Shown here piece by piece: positions 4,576 through 50,248 of a stretch of DNA of 64,000 nt. This DNA is from an uncultured bacterium (GTDB lineage Bacteria > Patescibacteriota > Minisyncoccia > Phycocordibacterales > DATDWN01). The stretch's first letter is position 1. Each line of letters starts with the position of its first letter. The notes beneath the pieces are model-generated. The model was given only the letters and a program-made list of their open reading frames with translations, made no database searches and had not been told where the DNA came from. The translations under genes and the position numbers were made by a program. The stretch spans positions 2,665 to 66,664 of the forward strand of contig CAIQCQ010000034.1 in NCBI GenBank assembly GCA_903870365.1, given 5' to 3'.

Positions 4576-4673
4576 CCCGTTAAAGTTTTAATGAAATTTT
4601 TTAATAATTTAATAGTCTCTGTGATATGCAAATACGTCTACAATAACAATCCTATAGATACAACTCTCATGGG
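4576..4673 (-). mobile_element. MITE-like 98-nt element, copy 1 (TIR CCCGTTARAGTTTTA), inserted at the xseB start codon
   Basis: 15-bp terminal inverted repeats; flanked by direct repeat ATGA(T/C); one of 5 copies. Confidence 0.7.
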
Positions 4674-4674
4674 A

Positions 4675-6012
4675 TCATGTACGTTTCGCATCTATCGTAC
4701 CATCTGCGACCAAAATCTGAAAATCCTCCCCCTCCTTTACATCACTCACCGAACGAACAACCTTGCCACCAGCCCGTGTAATAGACCAGCCAAGCTTGAG
4801 CTGCCGTTCTGGTGAGCGAGCTTCTAGTATTTTTTCATAATTCTCAATCTTATTCTGTACTGTCGTAACCAGTCGGGACGCTGCGGTAAACATGAGCCTG
4901 GTGTCCCGCTCTATATCCACCGTATAGCGAGCAATACTATGAGCGATTCTTTCTTCTGCACGACTCATGTACTGAAAATAATAATTAAACTTTTCAAAAA
5001 TGAGTCGAAAACTTTTTTCCATAATTTGTTCACCTTCTTCAAGCAGATAGATGCTGTCTCGCAGTGCATGTTCAAACGTAGACAATATACTTTGTTCGGC
5101 CAGCCTGACTTGCGATACAGCCTCGCGAAAACCAGCCGACAAAAGATTTGCCACCGCAGTTGGGGTAGAAACATTTTTATCTGAGACCATTCCCACCAGT
5201 GAAATGTCTTTATCATGACCAATACCAGTCAGGACTGGTGCGGGAAACGTGGCCACCGCTCGGACAAGCATCTCATTGTTGAATGCTTGAAATGATTCGA
5301 GCGAACCACCTCCACGCATCATGACCAGGACATCAACTTTTTTTGTGGCGAGTGTTTTAACTGCAGCCAGCAAATCTTTGATCGCTGCATCGCCCTCCAC
5401 TTTTGAATCAACAAAAATAATTTCAAACCCACATTTACCAATATTAGACAAAAAGTCGTTTATAACTGCACCAGATTTGGAAGTAATGACACCGATAGTA
5501 TGTGGGAACTCTGGGATTGGTCGTTTACGAGCCTCATCAAATAAACCTTCGGCTGATAACTTGGCTTTTAATTTCTCATAGGCTATTTGTAATGCACCCT
5601 CACCCACCAGTTCAATACTTTCCACCTGCAGACTAATAGTACCGTTTGGTTTGTATATACTCGGGTAAGCCGTGACAATAACCTCGAGACCGTCCTGTAG
5701 ATCAACTCCTGAAAGACTAAAATCCCGTTTCCACATAAAACAATTCAAGGTACTCTGGTCTACTTTATCCTTAATAGAATAATACAAATAACTCCGACCT
5801 TCGTACATTTTGACACCAGTCACTTCACCAATGATGCGAGCTTTTTGAGATTTCAGATTTTTATTAACCGAGTCAACATATTCTGACACCGACACAATCT
5901 CCTGCCCTACGACTGTCGTAGGCAGTTTCGATGAGAGTGGTTTTTTCACACTCCGTGTGGAAATATCTTTCTCGTTCTGTATGTTATTTTCAATTTCATC
6001 AAATAAATTCAT
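4675..6012 (-). CDS. xseA: exodeoxyribonuclease VII large subunit
   Basis: 445 aa; N-terminal OB-fold; catalytic core motifs MMRGGGSLESFQAFNNE and GIGHDKD. Confidence 0.9.
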   Translation of the reverse strand: MNLFDEIENNIQNEKDISTRSVKKPLSSKLPTTVVGQEIVSVSEYVDSVNKNLKSQKARIIGEVTGVKMYEGRSYLYYSIKDKVDQSTLNCFMWKRDFSLSGVDLQDGLEVIVTAYPSIYKPNGTISLQVESIELVGEGALQIAYEKLKAKLSAEGLFDEARKRPIPEFPHTIGVITSKSGAVINDFLSNIGKCGFEIIFVDSKVEGDAAIKDLLAAVKTLATKKVDVLVMMRGGGSLESFQAFNNEMLVRAVATFPAPVLTGIGHDKDISLVGMVSDKNVSTPTAVANLLSAGFREAVSQVRLAEQSILSTFEHALRDSIYLLEEGEQIMEKSFRLIFEKFNYYFQYMSRAEERIAHSIARYTVDIERDTRLMFTAASRLVTTVQNKIENYEKILEARSPERQLKLGWSITRAGGKVVRSVSDVKEGEDFQILVADGTIDAKRT

Positions 6013-6102
6013 AATGAAATTATACTTTGAAACGGTAGTTCAAAATACTTGACTTTTTTGTATTAAGTGTGTTATTTTTCACCATAGGTAAGGAGACCCG
6101 AT

Positions 6103-6324
6103 ATGGAAGCACCATCAGAAAAATGGACCGAGGATGAAAGAAAAAGTGTTGTTTTAGCGGTTACAGAAATAATGCTCCAGAGCATAAGAGAACCTCAGCG
6201 ATCCATTGTGGGAGCATCGGAAGTGCAAGAATGGGCAGAAACAATAGATTTTGTTCTTACAAAAGATGCCCATTTTCTTCAGGTAAACCGGGGAAGAATT
6301 TTGAGAACAATTGGAATCAGATAA
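6103..6324 (+). CDS. hypothetical protein
   Basis: 73-aa ORF followed by a long hairpin plus T-run at 6326-6372. Confidence 0.3.
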   Translation: MEAPSEKWTEDERKSVVLAVTEIMLQSIREPQRSIVGASEVQEWAETIDFVLTKDAHFLQVNRGRILRTIGIR

Positions 6325-6393
6325 CCCCCGCCACGTCGTCACAAAAAGTCCGACGGGCGGGCTTTTTGTTTATACAGATTCTCCTTCTCGCGC

Positions 6394-6418
6394 CATTCCC
6401 GTGCAGACGGGAATCCAG
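6394..6418 (-). repeat. REP-like unit (CATTCCCGTGCAGACGGGAATCCAG)
   Basis: Same family. Confidence 0.8.
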
Positions 6419-6445
6419 TGTATCCAATCATACTTATTATTACAT

Positions 6446-6511
6446 CCTGGATCCCCGCCTTCGCGAGGATGACAAGAATGGGTGGATTCCAGGTCAAGAC
6501 GGGAATGACAG
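6446..6511 (+). repeat. two degenerate REP-like units
   Basis: CCTGGATCCCCGCCTTCGCGAGGATGAC and TGGATTCCAGGTCAAGACGGGAATGACAG. Confidence 0.6.
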
Positions 6512-6560
6512 AGAAGGAAAAGTTTCCACTTTCTAACTTGCACCTTTCAAAACTTTTAAA

Positions 6561-6941
6561 CTACTTCACTTCCAAATCAAGACACACACTATTCAAACAA
6601 TACCGTTTACCCGTTGGAGTTGGTCCATCAGTAAATACATGTCCTAAATGGCTCCTACACTTTGAACACGTGATTTCAGTCCGATGCATTCCCATTTCAT
6701 CATCACTTTTTTCTATGACACTTCCGGCAATTGCTTGGTCAAAACTCGGCCAACCAGTACCCGAATCAAACTTGGCGTCTGACATGAACAAGCCTTGTCC
6801 ACAAACCTTGCACTTATACATACCATCACGATCATCATGCAGTAGCTTGCCGCTAAATGGGGCTTCGGTCCCCTTTTCACGGAGAACTTTGTATTCTTCT
6901 GGTGTTAATTTTGCTTTTAACTCTTGTTCGTTTATGTCCAT
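6561..6941 (-). CDS. msrB: peptide methionine sulfoxide reductase MsrB
   Basis: SelR motifs CxxC...CxxC and [12 protein letters not shown]. Confidence 0.9.
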
Positions 6942-6947
6942 ATTGTA

Positions 6948-7484
6948 TTAGTTATTTTTTAGTAAATTTGCAAACTGTTTCTGTACCTTCTCCAACTTTG
7001 GATTGATAATCACCTGGCAATACGGAGCGTAGCTGTGATTAGAAAAATAATCTTTATGATAATCCTCTGCCGGGTAAAAGACAGTGAGCATCTCTACCTC
7101 GGTCACAATTGGCGCACCTTCTTTGGTACTATTGAGATCTGCAATAAATTGCTCCGCCTCAGTCTTTTGCTCTGCCGTCGCACAAAAGATAGACGATCGA
7201 TACTGTGGACCAATATCCGCACCCTGTCTGTTTTTAGTAGTCGGATCATGGCTACCAAAAAACACCGTCAACAAGTCATGCAGTTTGACTTGTTCTGGAT
7301 CATAGACGATAGAGACTGCTTCAGCATGACCGGTGTCCCCTGTACACACTTGCTCATATGTTGGGTTCGGTACGTGACCACCAGTATACCCAGGTGTCAC
7401 AGACTCGACACCTTTCAACATTTTAAAGATAGCCTCTGTGCACCAGAAACAGCCACCGCCAAAAACAATTTGTTGTTTATTCAT
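6948..7484 (-). CDS. msrA: peptide methionine sulfoxide reductase MsrA
   Basis: GGCFWC active-site motif near the N-terminus. Confidence 0.9.
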   Translation of the reverse strand: MNKQQIVFGGGCFWCTEAIFKMLKGVESVTPGYTGGHVPNPTYEQVCTGDTGHAEAVSIVYDPEQVKLHDLLTVFFGSHDPTTKNRQGADIGPQYRSSIFCATAEQKTEAEQFIADLNSTKEGAPIVTEVEMLTVFYPAEDYHKDYFSNHSYAPYCQVIINPKLEKVQKQFANLLKNN

Positions 7485-7521
7485 CCCTCTATTATATCAG
7501 ACGTGTCAAGCGATACTACTT

Positions 7522-7710
7522 AATTTCGAATTTTGAATTTTGAATTTCCAATTTTGACATTGTTTTTTACGAACACAGTGAGTTAGAACTACAAGAAGTA
7601 CCCTTGTGGTAGAAACAAATTAAAATTTCTGAATGATTGGAAACAGCATCTAATTCAAAATTAAATCATTGAAACATTGTTTCAAAATTGGAAATTCGAA
7701 ATTTTACTTT
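7522..7710. repeat. AT-rich intergenic palindromic block: ~40-bp imperfect inverted arms of (AATTTYGAA)-type repeats around a GAGTTAGAACTACAAGAAGTACCCTTGTGG hairpin
   Basis: Arms 7522-7566 vs 7667-7710; the central 30-mer recurs at 13921-13955. Confidence 0.6.
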
Positions 7711-8444
7711 GCCGGTACCAGCTTGCCAGCACACGTAGCACTCGCCCACAATCCAATTCCTCCCTCTCGGGCATATTTTTCTGTTGACCGAAATTCCGCT
7801 TGAAACTGATACGGTTTTTTATATGTGTACTCAAACCCATAGCCTTCTTGAATAATTTCTTCATCCACTAACACATCACCTAAATACACATACCGGAGCC
7901 AGCGACCATATTTATCAACATCATTTTGTGTTGGGTCTGTTTCTAGTCGCACAACGGTATCAGCTGGTAACATATGTTTGAGATATTCTGAGGCTTCTTT
8001 ACCAAAACACTGCACTGGTTTACGAGGATCAACTGTCTCCGGAGTATTCACCCCTATCAAACGGACCGTATGATCACCTCCAACATCACTATGGACGACA
8101 ACAGTATCGCCATCCACCACCCTGGTGACATAGTAACTATGCTCCGGCAATACCGTCTCCTGACTTTGTATGACCGCAGCACTTTGTTCACTCGTAAATG
8201 GTGTATGTGACGACGTATGTACTGCAACAATACTACAAATAAACACAAGGAGTGGGATCGCTATCATCAAAAAATATTTTTTATTCGAGAAATACCCCGT
8301 CAGCTTTGCTGCGGGGATTGGTATAACAGTATCGGCGGAGGCCGATTCTTCTTCAAACACAAAAGCCTGGTCCCGTCCCGCGGATACCTCGTCCCTTGTA
8401 GGGTGAGAATCAACGGGACGAGCTTTTTTATTTTGTCTCATCAT
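7704..8444 (-). CDS. thermonuclease (SNase / micrococcal-nuclease family), membrane-anchored
   Basis: VVDGDTVVVH...VRLIGVNTPE...YGRWLRYVY; the N-terminal 60 aa are encoded by Repeat-B, so the real start may be the Met at ~8265 (MIAIPLL). Confidence 0.75.
   Translation of the reverse strand: MMRQNKKARPVDSHPTRDEVSAGRDQAFVFEEESASADTVIPIPAAKLTGYFSNKKYFLMIAIPLLVFICSIVAVHTSSHTPFTSEQSAAVIQSQETVLPEHSYYVTRVVDGDTVVVHSDVGGDHTVRLIGVNTPETVDPRKPVQCFGKEASEYLKHMLPADTVVRLETDPTQNDVDKYGRWLRYVYLGDVLVDEEIIQEGYGFEYTYKKPYQFQAEFRSTEKYAREGGIGLWASATCAGKLVPAK
8272..8424 (-). repeat. Repeat-B copy 1
   Basis: See copy 2; it overlaps the annotated 5' end of the nuclease ORF. Confidence 0.8.
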
Positions 8445-8475
8445 AGCGTATAGTATAGCTTCTCAGAGCAGTTTT

Positions 8476-9507: not shown

Positions 9508-10020
9508 ATGCAAGAACAAAACCACACACCATCACATATACGAAGTTTTTTTGAGTCACCATTAATACGTACGGTAATCTCAAAAATACTGATTGTGATT
9601 GTTGGCGTCATTATTGTCGCTTGTATATTTTTGGTTGGCGAAACAGTCGGTTATCACAAAGTTGAAACTTCATATCGTTTTGGCGAAAATTACAACCGTA
9701 TTTTTGAAGGCCAACAGGGTATGCACAATATATTTCTCATGCCTATAGATAATATGTTTTCTGGTACACATGGAGCGTTTGGTAAAATTGTCAAAATAAC
9801 ACTTCCTCAAGTTGTCATTGTCGGACAAGATGGATTAGAAAAAATTATTGTTCTCAATGATGATTCAATTATTAAAGAATTTCGTGGTGATGTCTCTTCA
9901 TCTAGTTTGAGTGTCGGAGACACGATTACTGTCCTCGGGTCTCCTGATGACACTGGGCAAATAACTGCAAAACTGATCCGCGTCGTTCCGAGTACTGCAA
10001 CATCAACTAACATCAAATAA
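9508..10020 (+). CDS. hypothetical membrane-anchored protein
   Basis: 170 aa with an N-terminal TM helix; in the same operon as the sigma/anti-sigma pair. Confidence 0.4.
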   Translation: MQEQNHTPSHIRSFFESPLIRTVISKILIVIVGVIIVACIFLVGETVGYHKVETSYRFGENYNRIFEGQQGMHNIFLMPIDNMFSGTHGAFGKIVKITLPQVVIVGQDGLEKIIVLNDDSIIKEFRGDVSSSSLSVGDTITVLGSPDDTGQITAKLIRVVPSTATSTNIK

Positions 10021-16846: not shown

Positions 16847-17272
16847 TTAATTTTGTATATTCGTATTAACCTGTTCTTGAACCAAACTCATGTTTTGTTT
16901 TCCTTGTAACCAGATTGTATCAAGAGACCAATCATCTCTGCCATTCAAAAATATAGAGACTGCAGACAGTGCCAAACCAACATCACGCACTGCCACGTCC
17001 CCATACCCCACCGTATAGGCAATATCAAACAAATGAAGAGCAATGATCAGTGCTGTGTACCGAGTGGCTATACCTGCAATCAGAGCGGTGCCAACGACAA
17101 GTTCAAATGCACCATTGAGATATATAAGTACTGTTGGACTAAGGCCAAGCATAGTAGTCCATGTAGGGAGCAAAAACACCCACATCTCTGGATGCAATAT
17201 CTGTTCCACACCAAACCACAGCACAACTAAGGCAATACCGACTCGCACAACGACAGGGGCGTATTTTTTCAT
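16847..17272 (-). CDS. DoxX family membrane protein
   Basis: 141 aa, 4 TM helices, DoxX-like. Confidence 0.7.
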   Translation of the reverse strand: MKKYAPVVVRVGIALVVLWFGVEQILHPEMWVFLLPTWTTMLGLSPTVLIYLNGAFELVVGTALIAGIATRYTALIIALHLFDIAYTVGYGDVAVRDVGLALSAVSIFLNGRDDWSLDTIWLQGKQNMSLVQEQVNTNIQN

Positions 17273-17369
17273 CCCGTTAGAGTTTTAATAAGAATTTTTT
17301 AATAATTAAACAGTCTACAGAGTAAATATACCTGTACTATATTAACCCCTTAGATAAAACTCTAACGGG
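17273..17369 (-). mobile_element. MITE-like 98-nt element, copy 2, inserted at the doxX start codon
   Basis: TIR CCCGTTAGAGTTTTA / TAAAACTCTAACGGG; flanking direct repeat ATGA. Confidence 0.7.
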
Positions 17370-17429
17370 ATCATATGAATATATTATACGCAATATACGT
17401 ATGTAAGTACATTTTGTATGCACACACAT

Positions 17430-19025: not shown

Positions 19026-19226
19026 ATGTGAAAAATTAAATTATAATCGACTATTATAGCATACGTATATACCCGAGCAAAAAGATTCAAATACCAAGAT
19101 ACTCCACCATTTCATATTCACTTCTGTCTTTATAGACTTTAGATTTTTCACCTCAGGAGTACCTGATGTATAAGTGTTCATTTCATTCCGTTATGGACTT
19201 TTAATTGTGGTGCTATACTTATTCCC

Positions 19227-27733: not shown

Positions 27734-28759
27734 CTATTTATCTCCTACTATCTCCATCAACGCCAATTCGAGTGGCAGAGACGCAATATATGCTCGAGTA
27801 GTGGCTGTGTACGCATCAAGCAGTTTAACGATCGTATCAGAGCCGACCGTTACATTTGTATCGAGAGCGATTTTTGAGATAAATGCAAAATCATCTTCAG
27901 ACATATCCCCTTTGACCAAATCCTCGGATCCAAAGCGAACAAGCAGCACCGCTCGCATTTTTTGCAACAATAATTTTAATAACACCGACATGTCGAGGTT
28001 GGCTTGTGACGCCTCACGCACAGCATTCAGTCCTTTATGCAAATCCTTTTCAGTAATAGCAGAGACGATAGCGTTGACCAGTTCCCCTTTTGGCGCACCC
28101 GTGACGGTCAAGACGTCTTCATCTGATATTTTTTTCGCCACTGCGGCTGACAACACTTTTTGCAACGTCCCCAATGTATCCCGAAATGATCCATCGCCAA
28201 TGAGGGCGACCAAATCTGCTGACACATCAGACAGCGTATACCCTTCTTTCTTGGCCACACTCAAGACTACTTTTTTTAAAGTCTCTTGGTTTGGTTTACG
28301 AAAAGTATGAACTTCACAACGAGAAAGTATGGTCTCGGGGATCTTGTGTGTCTCGGTCGTAGCCAGGATAAAGATGACATGTTCTGGTGGCTCTTCGAGG
28401 GTCTTCAAAAACGCATTGCTCGCCGACTTGGACAACATATGGACTTCGTCCAGTATGTATACTTTATATTTTGAATCAAATGGCAGTGTGTTGACTGATT
28501 CATTGAGCTCACGAATATCGTCCACCGATGTTTTTGACGCAGCATCTATCTCATAAATGTCGTTTGGTGAGGTGCCCAGCTCTCGAGCCAGGATACGAGC
28601 GATCGAGGTCTTACCGATGCCCCGAGAACCAGCAAACAAATAGGCGTGCCCGACAGTGCCGTTTGTGATCTGAGCTTGTAGTGTTTTAACAATGGCATCT
28701 TGGCCAACAACATCAGTAAATGTATGTGGACGATATTTTCGATAGAGAACTTCTGACAT
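27734..28759 (-). CDS. dnaX: DNA polymerase III subunit gamma/tau (short form)
   Basis: Walker A GSRGIGKTS; LDEVHMLS...EEPPEHVIFILATTE. Confidence 0.85.
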   Translation of the reverse strand: MSEVLYRKYRPHTFTDVVGQDAIVKTLQAQITNGTVGHAYLFAGSRGIGKTSIARILARELGTSPNDIYEIDAASKTSVDDIRELNESVNTLPFDSKYKVYILDEVHMLSKSASNAFLKTLEEPPEHVIFILATTETHKIPETILSRCEVHTFRKPNQETLKKVVLSVAKKEGYTLSDVSADLVALIGDGSFRDTLGTLQKVLSAAVAKKISDEDVLTVTGAPKGELVNAIVSAITEKDLHKGLNAVREASQANLDMSVLLKLLLQKMRAVLLVRFGSEDLVKGDMSEDDFAFISKIALDTNVTVGSDTIVKLLDAYTATTRAYIASLPLELALMEIVGDK

Positions 28760-28814
28760 GAGGATAGTTTAGCATACGAATATCCGAATTGGGAATTTCC
28801 GAATAGTTTTGAAT

Positions 28815-29932: not shown

Positions 29933-30961
29933 TTATAGACTACTCAAGTATTCCCGAATCACCCCCTCCACCTCCCCCGCATTATTACATTCCATCAGTC
30001 TCACCCGCAATTCCTTTGCCCCATCCCACCCATTCACATATGCTTTGAAATGTTTTTTCATCACCGAGAAATTTTTATATGCACACAATTCTTCAAATGC
30101 TTTGGTATGTTCAACCAATACCAATAATCGTTCTTCTGGGGTTCTACTTTTTCTATCACTTGCAAACAACCACGGGTTTCCAAAAATAGCACGGCCAAGC
30201 ATGGCACCGTCGGCCCCCGTTTCTGCACACAGTCTTTTTCCATGTTCAATATCGGTCACGTCGCCATTACCGAGTATCAAGGTTTTTGATTTTAGTTCAT
30301 CACGAATCTCCACTGCACGTTTGATATGTTCCCATCTAGCAGGTACTAATGACATTTCCTTTCGTGTTCGTGCATGTACCGTGATCGCTGCTGGCTCCGC
30401 AGATAATAGTATGGGTAACCATGTTTCAAGTTCATTCTTGTTGTATCCAATGCGAGTTTTAACAGAGACAGGGATCTCTTTCTCCTGCCATTCTTTAATT
30501 TCTTTTTCACTTGTATTTTCCTCTCTTAATTTTTCTATTTTTCTATTTTTATATTCTTCTATACCTCGCTGTGCAGCTTTAATAAGCTCGACAGCGAGAG
30601 GCGGATTTTTGATCAACCCCGCACCAGCACCCTGCTTCTCCACCGACTTATCTGGACAACCCATATTGATATCGATCCCATCAAAACCAAGCTCTACTGC
30701 AAGTTGTGCCGCGCGCTCCATCATATCTGGACGACTGGTGAAAAATTGTGCCACGATCGGTCGCTCACTTTCGGAATATGCAAGATCTTTGATGAGAGAA
30801 TCGTATCCACCCATAAACAGACCATCAGCCGACACAAACTCTGTCCACATCACGTCTGGTTTACCATACGTGGCAATGATACGTCGAAAAGCTGGATCAG
30901 TCACATCTGCCATGGGGGCTAACACAAGTATAGGGTGCTGTAATTTTTTCCAAAAACTCAT
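29933..30961 (-). CDS. dus: tRNA-dihydrouridine synthase
   Basis: VLAPMADVTD...DINMGCP... Confidence 0.85.
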   Translation of the reverse strand: MSFWKKLQHPILVLAPMADVTDPAFRRIIATYGKPDVMWTEFVSADGLFMGGYDSLIKDLAYSESERPIVAQFFTSRPDMMERAAQLAVELGFDGIDINMGCPDKSVEKQGAGAGLIKNPPLAVELIKAAQRGIEEYKNRKIEKLREENTSEKEIKEWQEKEIPVSVKTRIGYNKNELETWLPILLSAEPAAITVHARTRKEMSLVPARWEHIKRAVEIRDELKSKTLILGNGDVTDIEHGKRLCAETGADGAMLGRAIFGNPWLFASDRKSRTPEERLLVLVEHTKAFEELCAYKNFSVMKKHFKAYVNGWDGAKELRVRLMECNNAGEVEGVIREYLSSL

Positions 30962-31090
30962 ATCCGTTAGAGTAACTTAATTCATCCAGTAAGTCTAACG
31001 TGTAAATTTCTACCTCAGGAGTACCTGATGTGTAAGTGTTCCCTTATAATTAACCTAATTACTAATTTCTAAAGGAGACCGTTTAAAGAA

Positions 31091-31477: not shown

Positions 31478-32335
31478 TCATCTCACTTTGTAATATACTT
31501 TATTACCGTATCGTAGATCAATATAATCGACAAGTAACTCTCCATCTTTTTCTGGCACAAGATTTGCTGTCTGTAACAACTTTTGCAGATTAGATGCCGT
31601 TTCAGCGAGTGGAGACTTGGCATCAAAAATAATATAGCCACCACCGTACAAATACATTTCAAAATCATCCTGTGTAGTCGCTACTATATATAGTGGGGTG
31701 ATATTGAGGGCCTTCACGGCTTCAACAAATTGCGACAATTGTCCAAAGGTATCTGATGATGACAAATATGATGAACCAATAGCTGATTCAAATGGCACCA
31801 ACCCATAATATTTAAAATAAGCATCACCAGAAAAGTCTGGGGCTTGAGAAAAAACAAAACCTGTCTTGTCGAGGAAATAACACTGTGGGGCTATAGTCGG
31901 GTCGGTACTCGAAGCAATTTGTTCCGGAGAGAGATTGCACCACAAAGCAGATGGTTGGCGTTCGGTCACAGTCACGCCGATAGTATGATAATTAACCAAA
32001 CTCACAGAGACAGTCTGTATGCGTGGAAATTGCTGTTGGAGAAAAATAGTCAGGCCTTTTCGTGGGTACAATAGCGCATTTTTCTTGCTCAAGACATATA
32101 TATAGTTACCCGAAATATACTGCGAGACAGACTGTTTAATTTGGTCAGGTGACAAGATGACTGTACCAGTCACCTGAACCATATCAATGGATACTTTTGA
32201 CCAGTGAGTTAGGCCAGCAAAGCCAGCAATGAGTATCACGAGTACCACACACCAGAAAGAAACATGTTGAATAAGACGCTTTTTCTTTTTCTCCAAATAA
32301 TCAGGGTTATGATACGTTTGTGATTTTTGAATCAT
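31478..32335 (-). CDS. putative cell division protein FtsQ/DivIB-like (TM plus POTRA-like)
   Basis: N-terminal TM and overall size/architecture; weak. Confidence 0.35.
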   Translation of the reverse strand: MIQKSQTYHNPDYLEKKKKRLIQHVSFWCVVLVILIAGFAGLTHWSKVSIDMVQVTGTVILSPDQIKQSVSQYISGNYIYVLSKKNALLYPRKGLTIFLQQQFPRIQTVSVSLVNYHTIGVTVTERQPSALWCNLSPEQIASSTDPTIAPQCYFLDKTGFVFSQAPDFSGDAYFKYYGLVPFESAIGSSYLSSSDTFGQLSQFVEAVKALNITPLYIVATTQDDFEMYLYGGGYIIFDAKSPLAETASNLQKLLQTANLVPEKDGELLVDYIDLRYGNKVYYKVR

Positions 32336-32433
32336 CCCGTTAGAGTTTTATTGAGGGTCTTCTAATAATCAAATAGTCTACGTGCCAAGAATATATCCAT
32401 ATCATAACAAACTATAGCTAAAACTCTAACGGG
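32336..32433 (-). mobile_element. MITE-like 98-nt element, copy 3, inserted at the start codon of the ftsQ-like gene
   Basis: Perfect 15-bp TIRs; 5-bp direct repeat ATGAT on both sides. Confidence 0.75.
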
Positions 32434-32507
32434 ATCATCTGCTTATTGTATCAAAAATCTCTACTTTCGTAGAGATTTTTGTACTTTCTTCTTCGTAATT
32501 CTTACTT

Positions 32508-35355: not shown

Positions 35356-35461
35356 AAAAAATATTTAGAAATTAGAAATTAGTAATTAGGAATTTTTTAA
35401 ATAAAAAAATATCACTTATTTGCAAAAAGTTTAAAATACGGTAATACTAGACGAATATGAT

Positions 35462-35559
35462 CCCGTTAGAGTTTTTATACGACTCAGTACGGGCAAATAA
35501 CGTTTTTCATAAAATGAACAACTTGTAAGCACATACTTTAATCAAAAAACTCTAACGGG
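35462..35559 (+). mobile_element. MITE-like 98-nt element, copy 5 (divergent interior), inserted at the topA start codon
   Basis: TIR CCCGTTAGAGTTTTT...AAAAACTCTAACGGG; flanks ATGAT / ATGAA. Confidence 0.7.
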
Positions 35560-37818
35560 ATGAAAAAATTACTAATAGTAGAAAGTCCAGCCAAAGCCAA
35601 AACCATTTCAAAATATTTGAGTGGTGAAAAGGACACATACACCGTCGTCGCATCTGTCGGACACGTACGTGATCTTCCAAAGTCAAACAAAAAAGCCATC
35701 GATGTGGCTGCTGGTTTTGTGCCTCACTATGAAATTTCCAAAGGTAAAGAAAAAGTAATTGATGAGATATCTGCCCTGGCAAAAAAATCTGATGAAGTCC
35801 TGCTGGCGACCGACCCCGACCGTGAAGGTGAAGCCATCGCGTGGCATATCGCTGAGCTCTTGAAGAGCTCAGCGAAGTCAAAAGTCAAAAGTCAAAAGTC
35901 GAAAGAAAATACAGGACCAAAGATACAGAGAGTGACATATCATGAGATCACCAAAGAAGCCATCGAGGAAGCACTCAAACACCCTCGAGCCATTGACCAA
36001 AACTTGCGCAAAGCCCAAGAAGCTCGGCGTGTGCTCGACCGACTGGTGGGCTACGACCTCTCTGGTATCATTTGGAAAAAAGTGCGCTACGGTCTGTCTG
36101 CTGGCCGTGTCCAGTCCCCTGCGTTGCGTATCATCATGGAACGCGAGCGAGAAATACGTGCCTTCACCTCACACGCCTTTTGGGTCATTACTGCTGACGT
36201 GGCCAACAAAGACACATTCAAATTTGTCGTCACCTGCGAAGAAGAACCGACTGATCAGAAAAAAGTTGATGCCATCCTAGCCACAGGGAAAAAAGAAAAC
36301 TGGACCGTGACTGATATCAAAGCAACTGAAGTCAAGAAAACACCTCGTGCACCGTTTATCACTTCGACACTCCAGCAGACTGCATCGACACGACTTGGCT
36401 TTGCACCATCACGTACCATGGGTATTGCGCAAAAGTTATACGAAGCTGGACACATTACCTACATGCGTACTGATTCGACTACCCTTTCCAAAACTGCCCT
36501 TGCAGAAATCTCTACCGTCATCGAAAAAAAATTTGGTAAAGAATATCTCCAGCTCCATACTTTTACGACCAAATCAAAAAATGCACAGGAAGCTCATGAA
36601 GCCATCCGTCCAACACATGTGACACTGACAAGCGCCGGTAAAAATGATGATGAGAAAAAACTCTATGACTTGATCTGGGCTCGCACTGTGGCATCACAAA
36701 TGAAAGACGCAAATACACTGCGTACAAAAATTCTCGTCCAAGTTGGTGACGGCAAGATCAGTCCTGATTTTTCTGTTAACGGTTCACGAGTATTGTTTGA
36801 CGGCTGGATGGCCTCTGACCCGATGTCACGCACAGACGATATTGAAGTCCCAAAAGTCGAACTCAACGAGAAATTAAATTTTCATGATATCCATGCGCTC
36901 GAAAAGCAAACTGAACCACCGGGTCGCTACAGTGAAGCAGGTTTGATCAAAGAACTTGAAAAACGTGGCATTGGCCGACCGAGTACATATGCATCCATCC
37001 TCCGTACCATCGAAGAGCGTGGATATGTGGACAAGGTCAACAAAGCTCTGGTGCCGACAGACACTGGTGATGTAGTCTCGTCGTTCCTCGAAGACAACTT
37101 CGCTGACTACATTAGTGATACCTTTACTGCCGAAATGGAAGACAAGCTCGACCTCATTGCTGAGGGTAAACAAGAATACGAAAAAATCCTCAAAGATTTC
37201 TATACACCGTTTAGCAAAGAGGTAAAAATTAAAGACAAGCTCGACAAAGCCACCAACATGGGTGTAGCTGATCCAAAATTTACATGTCCGATCTGTGGCG
37301 AATCCATGATCATCAAACTTTCTCGTTCTGGGAAATTTCTTTCTTGTTCAACATACCCAGACTGTGATGGAGCACTCGATATGGAAGGTCGCGAGATCAA
37401 GAAAAATGAACCGATTGGTATTGATCCGACAACAGGTCTGCAGATTTTTATGATGGACGGTAAATATGGTCCATATGTTCAACTTGGCGAACGAGCAAAA
37501 GGTAAGGGTTCAAAGAAAGCGGTTAAACCACGCATGGCTGGCGTACCAAAAACAAAAGATCCAAACACCGTGACACTGACTGATGCCCTTCTCTACTTGT
37601 CATTACCAAAAGTCCTCGGTGTACACCCAGTCACTGGCCTGCCCATCACTGCCAACATTGGTATGTTTGGTCCATATGTCGTTCATGATAAAGATTTCAG
37701 ATCGCTCAAAGTGGATGATGTATATACGATCGAGCTTCCTCGGGCACTAGAAATCTTTGCCGAAGAAAAAAAAGTAGGACGACGTGGTCGATTTGCAAAA
37801 AAGAAGAAAGAAGAGTAA
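35560..37818 (+). CDS. topA: DNA topoisomerase I
   Basis: TOPRIM, catalytic Tyr region, C4 zinc ribbon CPICGESM; a hexanucleotide SSR at 35877-35900 encodes KSKVKSQKSK. Confidence 0.9.
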   Translation: MKKLLIVESPAKAKTISKYLSGEKDTYTVVASVGHVRDLPKSNKKAIDVAAGFVPHYEISKGKEKVIDEISALAKKSDEVLLATDPDREGEAIAWHIAELLKSSAKSKVKSQKSKENTGPKIQRVTYHEITKEAIEEALKHPRAIDQNLRKAQEARRVLDRLVGYDLSGIIWKKVRYGLSAGRVQSPALRIIMEREREIRAFTSHAFWVITADVANKDTFKFVVTCEEEPTDQKKVDAILATGKKENWTVTDIKATEVKKTPRAPFITSTLQQTASTRLGFAPSRTMGIAQKLYEAGHITYMRTDSTTLSKTALAEISTVIEKKFGKEYLQLHTFTTKSKNAQEAHEAIRPTHVTLTSAGKNDDEKKLYDLIWARTVASQMKDANTLRTKILVQVGDGKISPDFSVNGSRVLFDGWMASDPMSRTDDIEVPKVELNEKLNFHDIHALEKQTEPPGRYSEAGLIKELEKRGIGRPSTYASILRTIEERGYVDKVNKALVPTDTGDVVSSFLEDNFADYISDTFTAEMEDKLDLIAEGKQEYEKILKDFYTPFSKEVKIKDKLDKATNMGVADPKFTCPICGESMIIKLSRSGKFLSCSTYPDCDGALDMEGREIKKNEPIGIDPTTGLQIFMMDGKYGPYVQLGERAKGKGSKKAVKPRMAGVPKTKDPNTVTLTDALLYLSLPKVLGVHPVTGLPITANIGMFGPYVVHDKDFRSLKVDDVYTIELPRALEIFAEEKKVGRRGRFAKKKKEE

Positions 37819-45998: not shown

Positions 45999-46391
45999 TT
46001 GGCACAACATAGGAAAAATATGACCCTCGAAGCTCTTTCTGATTATTTTATCGCTGAAGTAGATCCTTGCCTATCAAATACCTTCATGCTGACGTTTCGG
46101 TATGATGAGGCCACAGTAACCATTCGCCTTAAGTTTGCTGATGAAGAAAGTGGTACCGATATGATCATCACCGGTGTCACGACTCATCCGTTTACGGAGA
46201 GAAAAAGTAATTATGCCAACATAGCGTTGCAACAAGTACTCGACTGGGCTGATGAACAAAACCTATGGAGTATCGAAGCCATACGAGTGAGCAGACGGGA
46301 TGAGTCTTTCTGGAGGAGAAATCATTTCTGGCCAATCGGTAACCCCACCAGAGATTTCAAGTTTACACATACACAAAAGAGGACCGAGTGA
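45999..46391 (+). CDS. hypothetical protein
   Basis: 130-aa ORF. Confidence 0.4.
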   Translation: MAQHRKNMTLEALSDYFIAEVDPCLSNTFMLTFRYDEATVTIRLKFADEESGTDMIITGVTTHPFTERKSNYANIALQQVLDWADEQNLWSIEAIRVSRRDESFWRRNHFWPIGNPTRDFKFTHTQKRTE

Positions 46392-46432
46392 ATATACTCA
46401 GTCCTCTTTTTTTATTAGCAACGTAAAATGTT

Positions 46433-49144
46433 TTAACCTTCCGTCACTTCACTAACCACAAAGTTTTCCGTCACCCCAGACTTGCGTGGATTCTTCACAT
46501 CAAAAGTAAACTCCATTGCACCATCACCTTTTTTATCCCCTGCTTTGACCGAGACACTCACACGACTACCCTTGCCCATCTTCTTACCCACCATGAGTGA
46601 GGCAATAGGCGTCAAGATTTTGTTTTGAATCAAACGTTTGAGTGGTCGTGCGCCATACTGTGGGTTGTATCCGTCTTTTGCCAACTGCTCCAACACACCA
46701 TCACTCAACTCTAGTCGAATTTCTTTTTCTGCTAGTCGGCGGACCACCAACTCAACCTGGATTTTCACAATATCTTTAATTATTTCTTTGCCCAATACAT
46801 CAAAGACAATAATATCATCGAGACGGTTCAAAAATTCTGGACGGAAATGGTCTTTCAGTGCTTCGAGTACTTTATTTTTTGCTTCTGTGTAATTTGTTTT
46901 TTCTGTTTGTTCACCTTCACCATGGGCATTAAAGCCAATTTTTTCCATACGATCAATGTACTGCCCACCAATGTTTGAGGTCAGGATGATTACCGTATTG
47001 CGAAAGTTCACTACTCGTCCCTTGGCATCGGTCAGTTTACCGTTGTCGAGGACTTGTAACAAAATATTAAAGACTTCTGGATGGGCCTTTTCTATCTCAT
47101 CAAAGAGAATAACTGAATATGGTCGATGACGCACGGATTCGGTAAAATTACCTGAATCATCGTGGCCAACATATCCTGGAGGTGCGCCGATCAATTTACT
47201 AACGGAATGTTTTTCCATAAATTCTGACATATCGACACGGATCAGCGCTTTGTCGTCGTCAAACATAAACTCAGCCAATGCTTTGGTTAGCTCGGTCTTG
47301 CCCACACCAGTCGGACCAAGGAAGAGGAACGAACCAATTGGTCGGTTTGGATCAGCAATACCGACACGAGAACGCTTGATAGTGTCCGAAATCTTCTTGA
47401 CTGCTTCTACTTGACCGACAATGCGTTCTCGCAAAACTTCTTCCATGCGGTGGAGCTTGTCTGCTTCTTGCTCAAGCATGCGGGAGACCGGCACACCAGT
47501 CCATTTGGAAACAATACGGGCAATATCATCTGCGGTGACTTCTTCTTTCAAGATGCGTCGTGATGACTGCAATTTCTTCAATCGCTTTACACGCAAATCC
47601 AATTCTTTTTCTGTTGCAGGAATAGTACCGTAGCGGATTTCTGCCGCCTTTGCCAAATCCACTCGCGCTTCTGCCGAGTCGGCGTCAAGGCGCAGTTCCT
47701 CCAACTTTTTTTTGATTATTTTAATCTCTACCACCACCTCTTTTTCGTTTTTCCATTTCAAATCAATCTCACCAGTCTTGTCTTTCAAATCTGCGATGGC
47801 TTTTTGAATCTCCGTCACACGAGCCTTTGATTTTAAATCAGTTTCTTTTTTCAAAGCCTCTCGTTCGATTTCAAGTTTGACCAAGGCTGAATGTGCTTCT
47901 TGCAATACTGGTGGCATATTTTCCAAAGCAATCTTTAAATACGATGATGCTTCGTCAATCAAATCCACTGCTTTATCTGGCAAAAATCTATCAGTAATAT
48001 ATCGTGCAGAGAGGTTGACCGCAGCTACAATTGCTTCGTCGGTAATGTGAACACCGTGATACAACTCGTACTTTTCTTTTAATCCACGGAGGATAGTGAC
48101 TGCATCATCAATCGATGGCTCGTTGACATAGACCGGCTGGAAACGTCGTGACAAAGCTGGATCCTTTTCAATATGTTTCTGATATTCACGTAAAGTCGTC
48201 GCGCCAATAGCTCGCAGTTCTCCGCGGGCAAGGGCTGGCTTCAACATATTTGATGCATCGAGAGATCCTTCGGCCGCACCTGCACCCACCAGGGTATGCA
48301 ATTCGTCGATAAACAAGACAATTTTACCGTCAGATTTTTCAATTTCTTTTAAAATATTTTTCAATCGTTCTTCAAATTCACCACGGTATTTGGTACCAGC
48401 TACGAGGAGGCCAAGATCAAGTGAGACCAACTCTTTATCTTTGAGTGATTCTGGTACATCGCCCATAGACATACGAATAGCCAAGCCCTCAGCAATAGCA
48501 GTCTTGCCCACACCAGCTTCACCAATCAAGATGGGATTATTTTTCGTTCGTCGAGATAATATTTGTACAATACGCGAGATCTCTTCTTCACGACCAATAA
48601 CTGGATCAAGTTTGTTCTGCTGAGCAAGCTTGGTGAGTGATCGAGTGTACTTTGATAATGCTTTAAATTTTTTGGGTGAAGATATTTCTTCGTTTTTCTT
48701 TGTTCTGATTTCTTCTACCACCTGCATGACTTGTGGTTTGGTCAATTTAAATCGAGACAGTAAATCACGAGCGACACCAGGAATTTCTAGTGCAGAGATA
48801 AACAAATGTTCTGTAGAAACAAATTCATCGTTCATTTCTCGAGCGATCTTGGCTGAGTTTTCAATCATCTGGGCCAACTCAGGAGTCAGATAAATCTGAT
48901 ACGACGGTGACAAAGTTTGTCCGGCATCAGTCCCCTCGATAGCTTCAATGAGTGAGTCAGTGAGTAAAATAGTATCTATTTCCAGTCGATCAAGCAGTGA
49001 AGGAACAATTGATTCCTCTTGCAAGACAAGGGCCGTCAACAAATGTAGTGGTGAGACGTGGTTTTGACCACGTTCAATAGCCAGCTCGTGTGCTCGGCGA
49101 ATGGCTTCTTTTGCTTTTGTGGTGAAATTATTAAATGGAGGCAT
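46433..49144 (-). CDS. clpB: ATP-dependent chaperone ClpB
   Basis: 903 aa; two AAA+ modules (GEAGVGKTA; GPTGVGKTE) with a long middle coiled coil. Confidence 0.9.
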
Positions 49145-49286
49145 ATAAATAGAGGTTAGAATCTAGAATTAAGAATTACGAATAATAAAAACTGATAAAA
49201 ACCCTTGATAATAACCAAATTATAGCTAAAAAACCAAAATGTCAAAAAAAAGGATATTATCGATAAATTCTCAAACTTCAAGATTC

Positions 49287-49320
49287 TAGCTTGTAGCTTG
49301 TAGCTTGTAGCTTGTAGCTT
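49287..49320. repeat. tandem heptamer (AGCTTGT) x ~4.7
   Basis: Read directly; immediately 3' of the 49321 ORF. Confidence 0.8.
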
Positions 49321-50148
49321 CTACTTCGCCACTTGGATCGACTGCAAATCCTGTTTAATAATGGCCGAGGGCAGATATGATTTTGTTGAAGCAAATTCCG
49401 ACAATGATATGCCGATGACATTACCTGATAATGACAAAATAGGGGCACCAGAAACAGCATCGATAGGACTGACATCCCCTTCTACTGAAGATACGGACTT
49501 GGTGGCTGGTGTGGTGCTTGAAGCTGCCGTTTCTTTCATAGTGAGATACGCCACCCGACCCACAGCTACCGCATTACTACTGTCTCCACCAATTGATATA
49601 ATAGTCTGTCCAAGCTGGGCATCATTAACATCCAAAGTAGCTGGTGTAAATGTATACGGCTTCACTGGTTTTGCTTTAAAAAAAGAAACTTGCCATTTTT
49701 TATCTCCGGCAATAGCTACCAATGGAATAGTTACTCCATCTGAAGTCAGTGCCACATAATTCATAACTGGGGAAATATATTGTTTGTCTGCTACAACAAT
49801 ACCGTCACTCGAGATAATTACGCCGAGACTGTACAAGTTGTCGACACTCCCATCTGCATTTTGTTCACGAATACGAACAATCGATGGCGTATTTTTAGCG
49901 ATAGATGAGGTGACACTGTCATCCTCGTTGACCACCACAGTGGTGGTCTGTTTTCCTGTATTTGTACCAGTCACGGCCGCTGGGGTCACAGTCTCGATAG
50001 TTTTCTCTACTACTTGATTAACGGTCTTGGTTAGCTCCACTGGTGCTTGCATGAGCAAAGAGGTGGTCATGATACCGGTAGCAATAGATACGACAAAAGA
50101 GATGAGGATACAGAGGAGAATAATTTGATGTTTGTTGAGATCGTCCAT
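49321..50148 (-). CDS. membrane-anchored trypsin-fold (HtrA/DegP-like) protein, catalytic His apparently absent
   Basis: SLGVIISSDGIVVADKQYI (cf. GSGVII..GY.VTNNHV) and VSGAPILSLSGNVIGI (cf. GNSGGPL..G.VIGI). Confidence 0.4.
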   Translation of the reverse strand: MDDLNKHQIILLCILISFVVSIATGIMTTSLLMQAPVELTKTVNQVVEKTIETVTPAAVTGTNTGKQTTTVVVNEDDSVTSSIAKNTPSIVRIREQNADGSVDNLYSLGVIISSDGIVVADKQYISPVMNYVALTSDGVTIPLVAIAGDKKWQVSFFKAKPVKPYTFTPATLDVNDAQLGQTIISIGGDSSNAVAVGRVAYLTMKETAASSTTPATKSVSSVEGDVSPIDAVSGAPILSLSGNVIGISLSEFASTKSYLPSAIIKQDLQSIQVAK

Positions 50149-50248
50149 CCCGTTAGAGTTTTAATGAAAACCTTCTAATAATAAAATAGTTTACGTAGTA
50201 AAAAATATATGTACATACTATCAATCCCATAGATAAAACTCTAACGGG
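50149..50248 (-). mobile_element. MITE-like element, copy 4, inserted at the start codon of the 49321 gene
   Basis: Perfect TIRs; both flanks are ATGG (TSD-like). Confidence 0.75.

Follow-up and report, generated by a model that had tools for sequence, protein, structure and literature searches.

The 64-kb window, by which we mean the whole stretch of DNA analysed, contains five copies (c1 to c5) of a short inverted-repeat element, each lying directly before the ATG of a gene unrelated to the other four. The first-pass annotation had located these copies and their genes, and both points are upheld: the 15-mer terminus at no more than two mismatches occurs nine times in the 64-kb window against 0.15 expected, and the open reading frames (ORFs) are real. 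A profile search of the 64-kb window returned no copy beyond the five. Among the downstream ORFs, Pfam matched DoxX, the trypsin-like peptidase and TopA; the FtsQ-like match is weak, and the score of xseB, which directly follows a strong xseA, is borderline. Start codons account for 28 of the 225 non-coding ATGR sites in the window, giving p ~ 3e-5 for the location of all five copies at starts. The features are as follows.

4575-4674, minus strand: c1 with its terminal T...A pair, inside the ATGA stop/start overlap of xseA and xseB; distal arm decayed (four mismatches)
4675-4678, minus strand: outer duplicated site ATGA of c1; its TGA is the xseA stop codon
4675-6012, minus strand: xseA ORF upstream of c1 (strong Pfam match)
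17272-17370, minus strand: c2, whose 15-bp ends match perfectly and whose last base supplies the A of the ATG of the DoxX-family gene
17371-17374, minus strand: outer ATGA of c2; the native -10 box TATAAT (17383-17388) lies 8 nt upstream
32335-32434, minus strand: c3, ahead of the FtsQ-like gene; the ortholog in the relative L116 has an element at the same site too
32435-32438, minus strand: outer ATGA of c3; the native extended -10 TGATACAAT (TACAAT, 32445-32450) lies 6 nt upstream
32401-32406, minus strand: candidate internal gene-directed -10 of c3, TGtTATGAT (element positions 29-34), read from alignments
4640-4645 (c1, TGtTATTGT), 17336-17341 (c2, TATAGT) and 50215-50220 (c5, TGaTAGTAT), minus strand: boxes equivalent to the c3 candidate -10, read from alignments
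35420-35460, plus strand: native topA promoter (TTGCAA, 35420-35425; TAATAC, 35442-35447), conserved in element-free relatives, followed by the outer ATGA of c4 (35457-35460)
35461-35560, plus strand: c4, ahead of topA, with TTTTT/AAAAA variant ends and an interior unrelated to the other four copies
50148-50249, minus strand: c5, ahead of the trypsin-like (HtrA-like) peptidase gene; L176 has an empty site
50250-50253, minus strand: outer ATGG of c5; the native -10 TATACT (50263-50268) lies 9 nt upstream

The element has the layout Y-CCCGTTAGAGTT..AACTCTAACGGG-R with 15-bp inverted ends; in the form adopted for our best explanation it reads Y-CCCGTTAGAGTTnn ... nnAACTCTAACGGG-R, with a subfamily-specific interior of ~67 bp between the 15-bp ends. 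Perfect 15-bp ends had been ascribed to all copies in the window. They are present in c2, c3 and c5, but not in c1, where the distal arm CCCATGAGAGTTGTA has four mismatches and the proximal arm one, nor in c4 with its TTTTT/AAAAA ends. The common interior likewise extends to four copies, that of c4 being unrelated in either orientation. The uniform orientation that had been described cannot be read for c4 by similarity; c4 does carry the distal G-rich motif of the family on the gene strand. The flanking repeats are present as described (ATGA/ATGA, ATGA/ATGA, ATGAT/ATGAT, ATGG/ATGG and ATGA/ATGA), but the duplication is not ATGN. The boundary of the element lies one base further out on each side, at the T...A pair, whose A opens the start codon. 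In the genome of the window, the sequence truly duplicated is therefore 3 nt long, TGA or TGG.

Across the family, positions 2-13 of the terminal repeat are invariant in 139 distinct copies (12 invariant positions), and pairing of the arms ends sharply at 15 bp. The terminal pair covaries (T.A in 91, C.G in 39 and G.C in 2), giving 132 Watson-Crick pairs against 77 ± 5 expected. The arm CCCGTTAGAGTTTTA is, on direct reading, without internal palindrome. By inspection, a third, internal copy of the terminal motif (CGGG-R) tends to covary with the end base. Most elements are 90-105 bp long (mode 97-99 bp, extremes 62 and 168 bp); the window holds five per 64 kb, and at least 9-10 copies were sampled in single MAGs. 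Short ORFs opening at the outer ATG are not conserved; a conserved peptide from this codon was rejected on direct reading, since frame and length vary with the duplication type (3-nt or 4-nt) and from one ortholog to another. The family is small, non-coding and multicopy, with MITE architecture.

Outside the window lineage the duplication is 4 nt, of the form T-N-N-A, mostly TGAA with TGGA, TTGA and TTAA also seen. The terminal purine and the duplicated TG together make an ATG or GTG start; in copies ending in C.G the inner start is GTG, the outer start still being ATG in most. The empty-site comparison that had been proposed for these loci was run, and empty loci were found at topA and at the trypsin-like gene. 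In the window topA reads ATGA+T+element+ATGAAA, while six related loci (L116, L117, L118, L174, L175 and L177) have a single ATGAAR behind the same conserved promoter; the trypsin-like gene of L176 has a single ATGGAA. Contigs with identical proteins were discarded as a source of empty sites, as they represent the same strain with the same insertions; the same-strain contig L112 carries a sequence identical to c2. The flanks covary in 18 of 21 informative copies (permutation p ≤ 2e-4), and an exact duplication of at least 3 nt is found in 65 of 79 copies, against 38.6 ± 2.5 with partners shuffled. The empty sites and the flank covariation establish a target-site duplication rather than an internal part of the element, as the first-pass annotation had argued. 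In 13 of the 79 copies the outer repeat is missing, so the outer start is dispensable. The description as a non-autonomous mobile element is supported in its mobile part by the insertion and the MITE architecture; 'non-autonomous' describes the architecture, no partner having been found in the sequence searched. Neither a transposase nor a longer element with the same ends was detected in the 1.34 Mb of sequence searched or in viral contigs. Long end pairs in L128, L134 and L079, considered as autonomous elements, are chance matches enclosing pilus genes.

The family is spread over more than 100 MAGs, mainly of Patescibacteria. The preference for translation starts seen in the window recurs in an independent sample, where 79 of 119 copies adjoin the first codon of an ORF 60 aa or longer (63 ATG, 16 GTG); others adjoin tRNA ends, -10 boxes, or -35 boxes that have a -10 at the proper spacing. 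A -10 box is located 4-11 nt ahead of the outer start in 37 of the 79 (control 15), and about half of the 79 are at +2 of leaderless-type promoters. The upstream ORF terminates at the outer start in 34 of the 79, about ten of which are ATGA overlaps. No Shine-Dalgarno sequence was found at any of the 79 start-abutting copies; a hairpin-bridged split ribosome-binding site was rejected, as none is located upstream of any of the 79 outer starts. The downstream genes form a broad housekeeping mix with no regulon theme. Some gene families are hit repeatedly (ValRS five times, TopA, SSB and DnaJ), sometimes with different duplication lengths. GAPDH recurs too if the non-class-A copies L027 and L061 are counted; in these the element interrupts the old ORF a few codons from its start, with ATT or ATA following. 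At the ftsQ-like gene, the subfamily in the window is not the one in L116, and the regenerated CGGG/ATGAA junction is itself the exact site of a second, tandem or nested insertion in L074, L048, L035, L057 and L070.

Strong conservation is seen in two ortholog pairs, with one weaker case, all ascertained through intact ends. In the SSB pair, the interior of the element is 90% identical as compared to 44% at third codon positions, and the element is the most conserved 60-nt window within 2.4 kb; in the L038/L062 pair, the values are 84% and 64%. The upstream flanks of orthologous pairs are ~62-70% identical, and the native -10 TACAAT is kept in both SSB orthologs. Orthologous copies are 87-94% identical, whereas paralogs in the same MAG are visibly less alike, with interiors near the shuffled level. 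Copies within a genome are therefore not closer than orthologs, as they would be after the recent bursts typical of MITEs. The reading as no more than a selfish repeat was not supported, orthologous copies being under purifying selection. The distal end is retained in 38 of ~40 genuine one-sided matches; a promoter role does not need this end, and its retention may in part reflect the ascertainment of young copies.

Of the 79 copies, 32 have the distal G-rich motif on the gene strand and one has it mirrored, a polarity of 32:1. The gene strand scores better for extended -10 matches than do the opposite strand (p ~ 9e-4) and shuffled sequences (p ~ 1e-4). The motif [TG]nTATTAT is position-conserved in 10 of 12 members of the largest subfamily, as is TGnTAnnnT in the window copies. 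The earlier suggestion that the element may supply a promoter thus has modest statistical support, from the gene-strand -10 bias and the conserved box positions within subfamilies. A strict two-hexamer sigma-70 scan gave no match in either c3 or c4; as the native topA promoter escaped it too, it is uninformative here. The terminus itself was considered as a promoter of the leaderless type, with AAAACT 8 nt ahead of the ATG, and rejected: TG at -15/-14 occurs in 21 of 99 proximal and 26 of 99 distal ends, and several terminus variants swap the A-run yet keep the arms complementary. First-AUG scanning from an internal promoter was also rejected, as upstream AUGs are not depleted.

The best explanation, which we hold with moderate confidence, is an old MITE-like family, derived from a DNA transposon and widespread in Patescibacteria, that has been retained as a promoter/leader cassette. 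Insertion duplicates a short T-N-N-A target, 4 nt in most lineages and 3 nt (TGA or TGG) in that of the window. At a start site with a TGNA target, the outer copy remains with the old promoter or with the stop codon of the upstream gene, and the last base of the element (A or G) with the inner TG rebuilds an ATG or GTG joined to the ORF. The genes hit lack a Shine-Dalgarno sequence and are either leaderless or translationally coupled. We infer that the element functions as promoter and leader: expression after insertion would probably come from a gene-directed promoter of the extended -10 type in the interior and give an A/U-rich leader, again without Shine-Dalgarno sequence, ending in the conserved terminus. 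Dependence on these signals would account for the fixed polarity and purifying retention of start-codon copies. Against this cassette model, the 1.34 Mb and the viral contigs yielded no transposase or longer same-ended element, the promoter signal is statistical and modest, the start codon is flush to the 15-bp arm with no Shine-Dalgarno sequence, and upstream AUGs are not depleted in the proximal part. A promoter cassette would act from anywhere upstream, so the contact with the start codon is unexplained by it.

A MITE that is purely selfish, with neutral passenger copies and a transposase actively directed to promoter DNA and the first bases of start sites, seems to us rather unlikely. It would accommodate the second insertions at the regenerated junction, the repeated hits on the same gene families with sometimes different duplication lengths, and the different subfamilies at the ftsQ-like gene; a motif-only model cannot yield five of five copies at start codons, and the arms act as DNA-level inverted repeats. 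The apparent conservation would then stem from recency, from hot-spot reinsertion of the same subfamily or from lethal imprecise deletion beside essential starts. However, ortholog interiors are 84-90% identical where synonymous sites are at 44-64% and upstream flanks at ~62-70%, divergence is greater among paralogs of one genome than between orthologs of different species, and a polarity of 32:1 is unexpected of symmetric ends without selection or an oriented targeting factor. At the RNA level, a transcript from the native promoter could fold its 15-bp arms into a hairpin at the start codon, which either gates translation or is trimmed to a short-leader or leaderless mRNA by a double-strand-specific or hairpin-specific RNase, like RNase III on Correia elements. 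The retained native -10 boxes before the outer start (e.g., TACAAT in the SSB orthologs), the stability of the predicted hairpins (mean -28.6 kcal/mol, z -5.4), the coincidence of the last base pair with the first base of the start codon and the documented RNase III cleavage at the inverted repeats of the Correia MITE (PMC10969869) are all consistent with this. We nevertheless consider it doubtful, and the 5'-UTR structure suggested as a possibility in the first-pass annotation was not supported as a functional hairpin: non-Watson-Crick stem positions on the gene strand comprise 10 G.U and 14 A.C, no preference for G.U, only the terminal stem is predicted in four of five subfamilies, with no conserved interior fold, and pairing has an exact limit of 15 bp, like that of a terminal repeat recognised by a protein. 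Rfam gave nothing relevant, whether the window was scanned at the gathering threshold or c3 permissively; with the missing G.U bias and the lone terminal stem in four of five subfamilies, this led us to reject a structured cis-regulatory RNA.

The identity of the ends at the DNA level in very divergent lineages (12 invariant positions), the internal third motif that by inspection tends to covary with the end base, the constrained length (mode 97-99 bp) and the retention of both ends would suit a portable operator pair: a conserved DNA-binding protein, which might be a transposase that was domesticated, would recognise both identical 15-bp ends together with the internal CGGG-R repeat and regulate the gene by looping the promoter region or occluding it. 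This is improbable in our view, as no candidate protein was identified, the housekeeping mix downstream has no regulon theme, and lengths from 62 to 168 bp are poor for helical phasing. An inverton, in which an invertase flips an internal promoter on and off, would likewise explain inverted repeats around a ~67-bp segment with promoter-like boxes by gene starts, and inversion of Correia elements has been reported (PMC10969869). Essentially a single orientation is found in the assemblies (32:1), the empty sites and target duplications point to insertion of the transposition type, and the genes are housekeeping rather than phase-variable surface genes; we regard it as very unlikely. Hardly credible at all is post-transcriptional removal or skipping, by splicing or by ribosome hopping between the duplicated codons as in T4 gene 60 or yeast mitochondrial byp elements. 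The duplicated flanks do supply matching codons automatically, and the GAPDH elements of L027 and L061 lie a few codons into the old ORF with ATT or ATA after them, but 13 of 79 copies have lost the outer repeat, the copies are confined to the extreme 5' end instead of being spread along ORFs, the unrelated interiors make a ribozyme implausible, and excising the L061 element leaves, by inspection, the reading frame unrestored.

More speculative, and to our minds not probable, is a mobile 'start-site module' whose machinery finds start signals and whose invariant 3' terminus is a new Shine-Dalgarno-independent initiation signal; both properties would be unprecedented. Its targets would be +2 of leaderless promoters, ATGA junctions, -35/-10 boxes and tRNA ends, with integration occurring, for example, by riding RNA polymerase or another start-site-bound factor. 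If this were true, it would enable Patescibacteria to give leaderless genes a leader and a regulation of their own.

The genomes of Patescibacteria are tiny and streamlined, and are generally thought to be poor in repetitive and mobile DNA. A radiation-wide repeat, positioned with base precision at the start codons of essential genes and selectively kept, would rank among the clearest wholesale recruitments of a bacterial transposable element into the architecture of gene expression, and it bears on translation initiation without leader and without Shine-Dalgarno sequence in these organisms. For annotation, gene callers may choose the outer ATG or miss GTG, ATT and ATA starts at the junction. 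Shared insertions are a ready phylogenetic marker, and the defined 15-bp site offers a handle for finding the binding or mobilising protein.

The expectation that such elements are undescribed for CPR-type genomes is supported: no prior description was found in the literature, searches on the terminus sequence, CPR, MITE, leaderless and start-codon topics gave chance primer matches only, and a review of prokaryotic MITEs contains no equivalent element. Correia elements duplicate TA and have 26-bp ends of unrelated sequence. Correia/NEMIS elements of Neisseria are comparable to the family here in being ~100-150 bp long with inverted ends, usually directly upstream of genes, and in the functional signal made by the junction of end and target duplication. 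They carry promoters, and their inverted repeats form an RNase III substrate in the mRNA (PMC10969869). Correia elements are known from one genus and are not known to be placed at the start codon, whereas the present family spans a phylum-level radiation, has a T-N-N-A duplication (3-4 nt), creates the start codon itself as its signal and shows no sign of RNA-level selection on the hairpin. Membership was rejected, as TA duplication giving a TATA-type -10 does not agree with the duplications TGAA, TGGA, TTGA and TTAA, or with TGA and TGG in the window. Generic MITEs (ERIC, RUP, MITEAba12, Chunjie) share small size, lack of coding capacity, terminal repeats, target duplication, multiple copies and occasional promoter donation. 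They are typically restricted to a genus or family, loosely intergenic and have a recognisable parent IS; the family here is base-precise at expression signals, has fixed polarity and purifying selection, and no parent was found in the sequence searched.

REPINs are ~100-nt hairpin doublets of a conserved ~15-25-nt sequence around a less conserved spacer, vertically inherited and long-lived. These RAYT-mobilised REP doublets differ in that they are not known to make a target duplication, their arms are small palindromes with GTAG, and they are extragenic, commonly near the 3' ends of genes; the duplication, the arms without self-complementarity and the location at gene starts exclude the present family from REPIN/REP-RAYT. 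Rickettsia palindromic elements and byp elements are similarly mobile palindromic inserts tolerated in or beside essential genes. The former are translated in frame, and byp elements, flanked by matching codons, are scattered through ORFs and skipped by the ribosome; the insert here precedes the ORF, is out of frame and has a dispensable outer repeat. Translational bypass was therefore rejected, the take-off codon being lost in 13 of 79 and the copies lying at ORF starts, not inside. An integron attC site was rejected by reasoning, since the order of the core motifs does not fit and copies are scattered over housekeeping genes. No transposase of the piggyBac/IS1380 or any other family was linked to the element. 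DDE transposons of the piggyBac/IS1380 type have CCC...GGG ends and a 4-bp palindrome-like duplication (TTAA in piggyBac), a likeness in general pattern; TTAA is the duplicated site in one copy of the family (L027).

The five copies of the element that the first-pass annotation had placed in the window are borne out by a search with the terminus CCCGTTAGAGTTTTA, which gives nine matches at two mismatches or fewer (0.15 expected). These are four well-formed pairs and the proximal arm alone of c1, the xseB copy, because its gene-distal arm has decayed; a profile built from the five copies found no further copy in the window. The ATG of a real ORF sits flush against the end of every copy (5/5), as had been claimed, and Pfam agrees with the genes named: a DoxX-family protein (c2), an FtsQ-like protein (c3, weak), TopA (c4), a trypsin-like peptidase (c5, named HtrA-like) and xseB, whose score is borderline but which lies directly after a strong xseA. 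The ends are not perfect over 15 bp in all five, as had been described; the distal arm of c1 carries four mismatches and the arms of c4 end in TTTTT/AAAAA. The partly conserved interior holds for four copies, that of c4 being unrelated to the others in either orientation. With the elements masked, ATGR sites in the window comprise 28 start codons, 197 other non-coding sites and 1009 intragenic sites, giving p~3e-5 for five out of five at starts even if all intragenic insertions are assumed to be lethal. Start-codon placement is not an effect of composition.

A possible, badly decayed sixth copy is located at 30964-31076 (-), upstream of the Dus gene (29933..30961), where the gene start reads ...TTACTCTAACGG-AT-ATG and, about 113 nt upstream, a weak CCTTTAGAAATT is found; its family profile score is not significant. 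A 780-nt contig (L113) encoding an identical DoxX protein has only the proximal ~35 nt of c2 in common and then diverges; the contig was either joined at the repeat during assembly or comes from a strain with the distal part replaced. The native promoter of the ftsQ-like gene is separated from the SerRS gene by a terminator-like hairpin with a palindromic 13-bp stem (32452-32481; T-tail on the + strand, local genes on the - strand), an indication that c3 belongs to an independent transcription unit.

Relatives were fetched via TopA homologs, not via the repeat. In four of these loci (L116, L117, L118 and L174), the topA promoter TTGCAA-N16-TAATAC(T) is conserved and followed 9 nt on by a single ATG, reading ATGAAG, ATGAAA or ATGACA; in the window, the same promoter is followed by ATGA, T, the element and ATGAAAAAA. 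Two further loci, L175 and L177, have a single topA start without the element, and their upstream region is less similar. At the trypsin-like gene, L176 shows only one ATGGAA, against ATGG+T+element+ATGGAC in the window. The element was indeed inserted, with duplication of its target.

A two-ended pattern scan, with one genome per species, gave at least 111 loci, which with the window make 119 copies among the matches listed. Read from the flanks, the element unit is Y-CCCG...CGGG-R, one base longer at either end than first described. Its terminal pair covaries (T.A 91, C.G 39, G.C 2 among the matches listed), with 132 Watson-Crick pairs against 77+-5 with shuffled partners. The duplicated bases sit outside this pair with a consensus of roughly T-N-N-A; TGAA is the commonest among the matches listed, then TGGA, TTGA, TGAG, TGTA, TGCA, TATA and TTAA. 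In window-type lineages, the duplication is TGA or TGG. The duplication proposed earlier is real, as empty sites and covarying flanks indicate, but its unit is not ATGN. Exact duplications of at least 3 nt occur in 65 of the 79 listed start-codon copies, against 38.6+-2.5 (maximum 49) in 5000 shuffles, and the outer flank matches in 18 of the 21 listed whose inner flank is other than TGAA. Copies with a C.G terminal pair have an inner GTG, the outer start still being ATG in most; the first base of the start codon thus comes from the last base of the element, not from the target. Of the 79 listed, 13 have a decayed outer repeat, and initiation at the outer start is therefore not required.

Arm pairing ends sharply at 15 bp and is at chance level from position 16 on. 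Positions 2-13 do not vary, which in part reflects the search pattern; at positions 1, 14 and 15 the bases vary yet stay complementary, with three or four kinds of pair. The commonest lengths are 97-99 bp, with rare short (62-67 bp; L141, L153) and long (109, 124 or 168 bp) elements. At the same gene start in two metagenome contigs (L133, L135), the orthologous element is 124 and 94 nt, owing to an extra ~30-nt segment near the distal end. Interiors are mostly unalignable across the family and were grouped into subfamilies. Among the matches listed, 32/79 copies bear a G-rich motif (ACGGG, GGGG or GTGG) on the gene strand, 21-38 nt in from the gene-distal end, against 1/79 mirrored; the element has polarity. 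The motif is similar to the 3' terminus CGGG-R and, in about 21 copies compared by eye, tends to covary with the base at the 5' terminus.

The annotation had also suggested that the element may supply a 5'-UTR structure or a promoter. An RNA-level role for the arms is not supported: non-Watson-Crick stem positions on the gene strand show no G.U preference (10 G.U, 14 A.C), RNAalifold gives the terminal stem only in four of five subfamilies, and Rfam holds no match to the element. The arms accordingly behave as two copies of one putative protein-recognition sequence rather than as an RNA-selected helix, and the UTR structure is not supported. The promoter proposal gains some statistical support. 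The gene strand gives higher best extended -10 scores than the opposite strand (Wilcoxon p=9e-4), which is at chance level, and than shuffles (p=1e-4). [TG]nTATTAT[AG]C occurs at a conserved position in 10/12 members of the largest subfamily, and TGnTAnnnT is common to the four related window copies at about positions 29-35 of the element. The signal is modest, and a strict two-hexamer scan, which also misses the native topA promoter, finds nothing in c3 or c4.

A start codon with an ORF of at least 60 aa is adjoined by 79 of the 119 listed copies (63 ATG, 16 GTG). No Shine-Dalgarno motif precedes the outer start in any of these 79, and the sequence upstream is as follows.

Sequence upstream of the outer start, among the matches listed
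-10 hexamer ending 4-11 nt before the start (leaderless geometry): 37/79, control position 15
ORF on the same strand that stops at, or shortly before, the start: 34/79
Classic ATGA stop/start overlaps within those 34: about 10, including c1 at xseA/xseB

Leaderless geometry is dominant in the ordinary genes of the window too. Many lack a Shine-Dalgarno and have a -10 box (TATAAT, TATACT, TAAACT; frequently preceded by TG) that ends 6-9 nt short of the ATG (for example 6012-6030, 8444-8460, 19210-19226 and 28759-28775), and a minority carry an evident GGAGG; leaderless genes seem to prevail in this genome.

The remaining 40 of the 119 listed copies are also non-randomly placed. Some lie at -35 hexamers that are followed at the correct spacing by a -10 (L099, TTGACA-N17-TACAAT; L086; L093), where they duplicate TTGA and so preserve the -35 box; others adjoin -10 boxes of leaderless genes (L011, L023, L070) or tRNA gene ends (L105, L029, L046, L109). 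In L105 (4642-4739), the terminal CGGGG is also the first five bases of tRNA-Pro; the 109-nt subfamily (L029, L046, L109) sits at the tRNA 3' CCA end, flanked by the repeat GGTGGACC. At two GAPDH genes, ATT or ATA takes the place of ATG right after the element (L027 7358-7454; L061 320-414), and these genes may use a non-canonical start. The L027 outer flank ATGAAAAAAATTAA keeps the apparent original N-terminus (MKKIK), which puts the element a few codons inside the old ORF. A second insertion in tandem lies exactly at the regenerated CGGG|ATGAA junction in L074, L048, L035, L057 and L070. The downstream genes span a wide range of housekeeping functions and share no regulon theme; families recurring across species among the matches listed are ValRS-like (five), GAPDH (three, counting the non-class-A copies L027 and L061), and TopA, SSB, DnaJ, Nfo and others (two each).

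Three pairs of orthologous copies were compared with their surroundings.

Conservation of orthologous copies
SSB (L012/L107): whole element 94%, interior 90%, third codon positions of next gene 44%, CDS 69%, upstream 150 nt 70%
L038/L062: whole element 87%, interior 84%, third codon positions of next gene 64%, upstream 62%
Nfo (L037/L085), a weaker case: whole element 74%, interior 65%, third codon positions of next gene 46%

Within the 2.4-kb alignment of the SSB pair (55% identical overall), no other 60-nt window is as conserved as the element; in L038/L062, it is on par with the best-conserved coding segments. These orthologs clearly resemble each other more than copies within one genome do, opposite to the pattern of a recently active MITE; the element is old and under selection and does not stem from a recent burst. 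Insertions have also been gained in particular lineages. In four relatives whose TopA is 73-74% identical, 88 kb of sequence hold no copy, and the ftsQ-like copy is common only to the window and its closest relative, L116, where the end subfamily differs. In a one-sided metagenome scan (query, proximal end + ATGAA), the distal end is intact (at most one mismatch) in 38 of about 40 genuine matches, a figure of limited weight because requiring a perfect proximal end probably enriches young or well-conserved copies.

By its architecture the element belongs with the MITEs, which it matches in ends, duplication, size and copy number, although the within-genome similarity pattern of MITEs is absent. 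No parent IS with its ends was found in 1.34 Mb of sequence and viral contigs. The ends (CCC...GGG, 4-nt T-N-N-A/TTAA duplication) presumably resemble those of piggyBac/IS1380, which we take as a lead only. A REPIN was rejected on the target duplication and on arms without internal palindrome, and an inverton is very unlikely given the nearly uniform polarity (32:1 in assemblies), target duplications and empty sites. A bypass element does not agree with outer repeats lost in 13/79 of the matches listed and copies at ORF starts; a known RNA family was rejected on the Rfam result. Closest in behaviour are Correia elements, which donate promoters, build a functional signal at the junction and lie just upstream of genes (PMC10969869); their defining TA duplication is absent here and the phylogenetic range of our element is far wider. 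The searched literature holds no mention of its sequence or of such an element in Patescibacteria, in keeping with the earlier statement that none was known to be described for CPR-type genomes.

We give about even credence to a composite, insertion at the start site followed by retention as a promoter/leader source, in which insertion, structure and selection are observed and the promoter/leader function is predicted from sequence. A DDE-type or other cut-or-copy transposition system would insert the element with a 3-4-nt staggered duplication, and at a start site the duplication and terminal purine would leave both neighbours intact: the outer copy would retain the stop codon of the upstream gene, or stay with the old promoter, and the inner copy would provide the ATG or GTG of the ORF. 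As the target genes had neither leader nor Shine-Dalgarno, their expression after insertion would plausibly depend on a gene-directed promoter and an A/U-rich leader supplied by the element itself. Such dependence is proposed to make the element indispensable at that site and would account for the fixed polarity, purifying selection and enrichment at essential genes. The composite gives no account of the obligate start-codon contact or of how that codon is recognised; tandem insertions and copies at -35/-10 boxes suggest that real start-site targeting contributes.

A few copies (L019, L036, L052, L059, L068, L086, L088, L090, L092) come from MAGs that bear the labels Omnitrophota, Bdellovibrionales, Gammaproteobacteria, Planctomycetia or Nitrospirota, including one from an Omnitrophota contig of 197 kb; either the bins are mislabelled or the element has spread beyond Patescibacteria. 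The window also holds a full-length LOOT RNA (RF03000) match at 59197-59316 (-), with 90 bits against a gathering score of 46. Relatives without the element carry a different ATTCGTAT/ATACGAAT-rich insert of ~60-115 nt between the conserved promoter and the ATG of topA or Dus (L176 ~9880-10000; L175 ~6121-6200; L177 ~6098-6170), which looks like a second repeat family in the same promoter-to-start gap.
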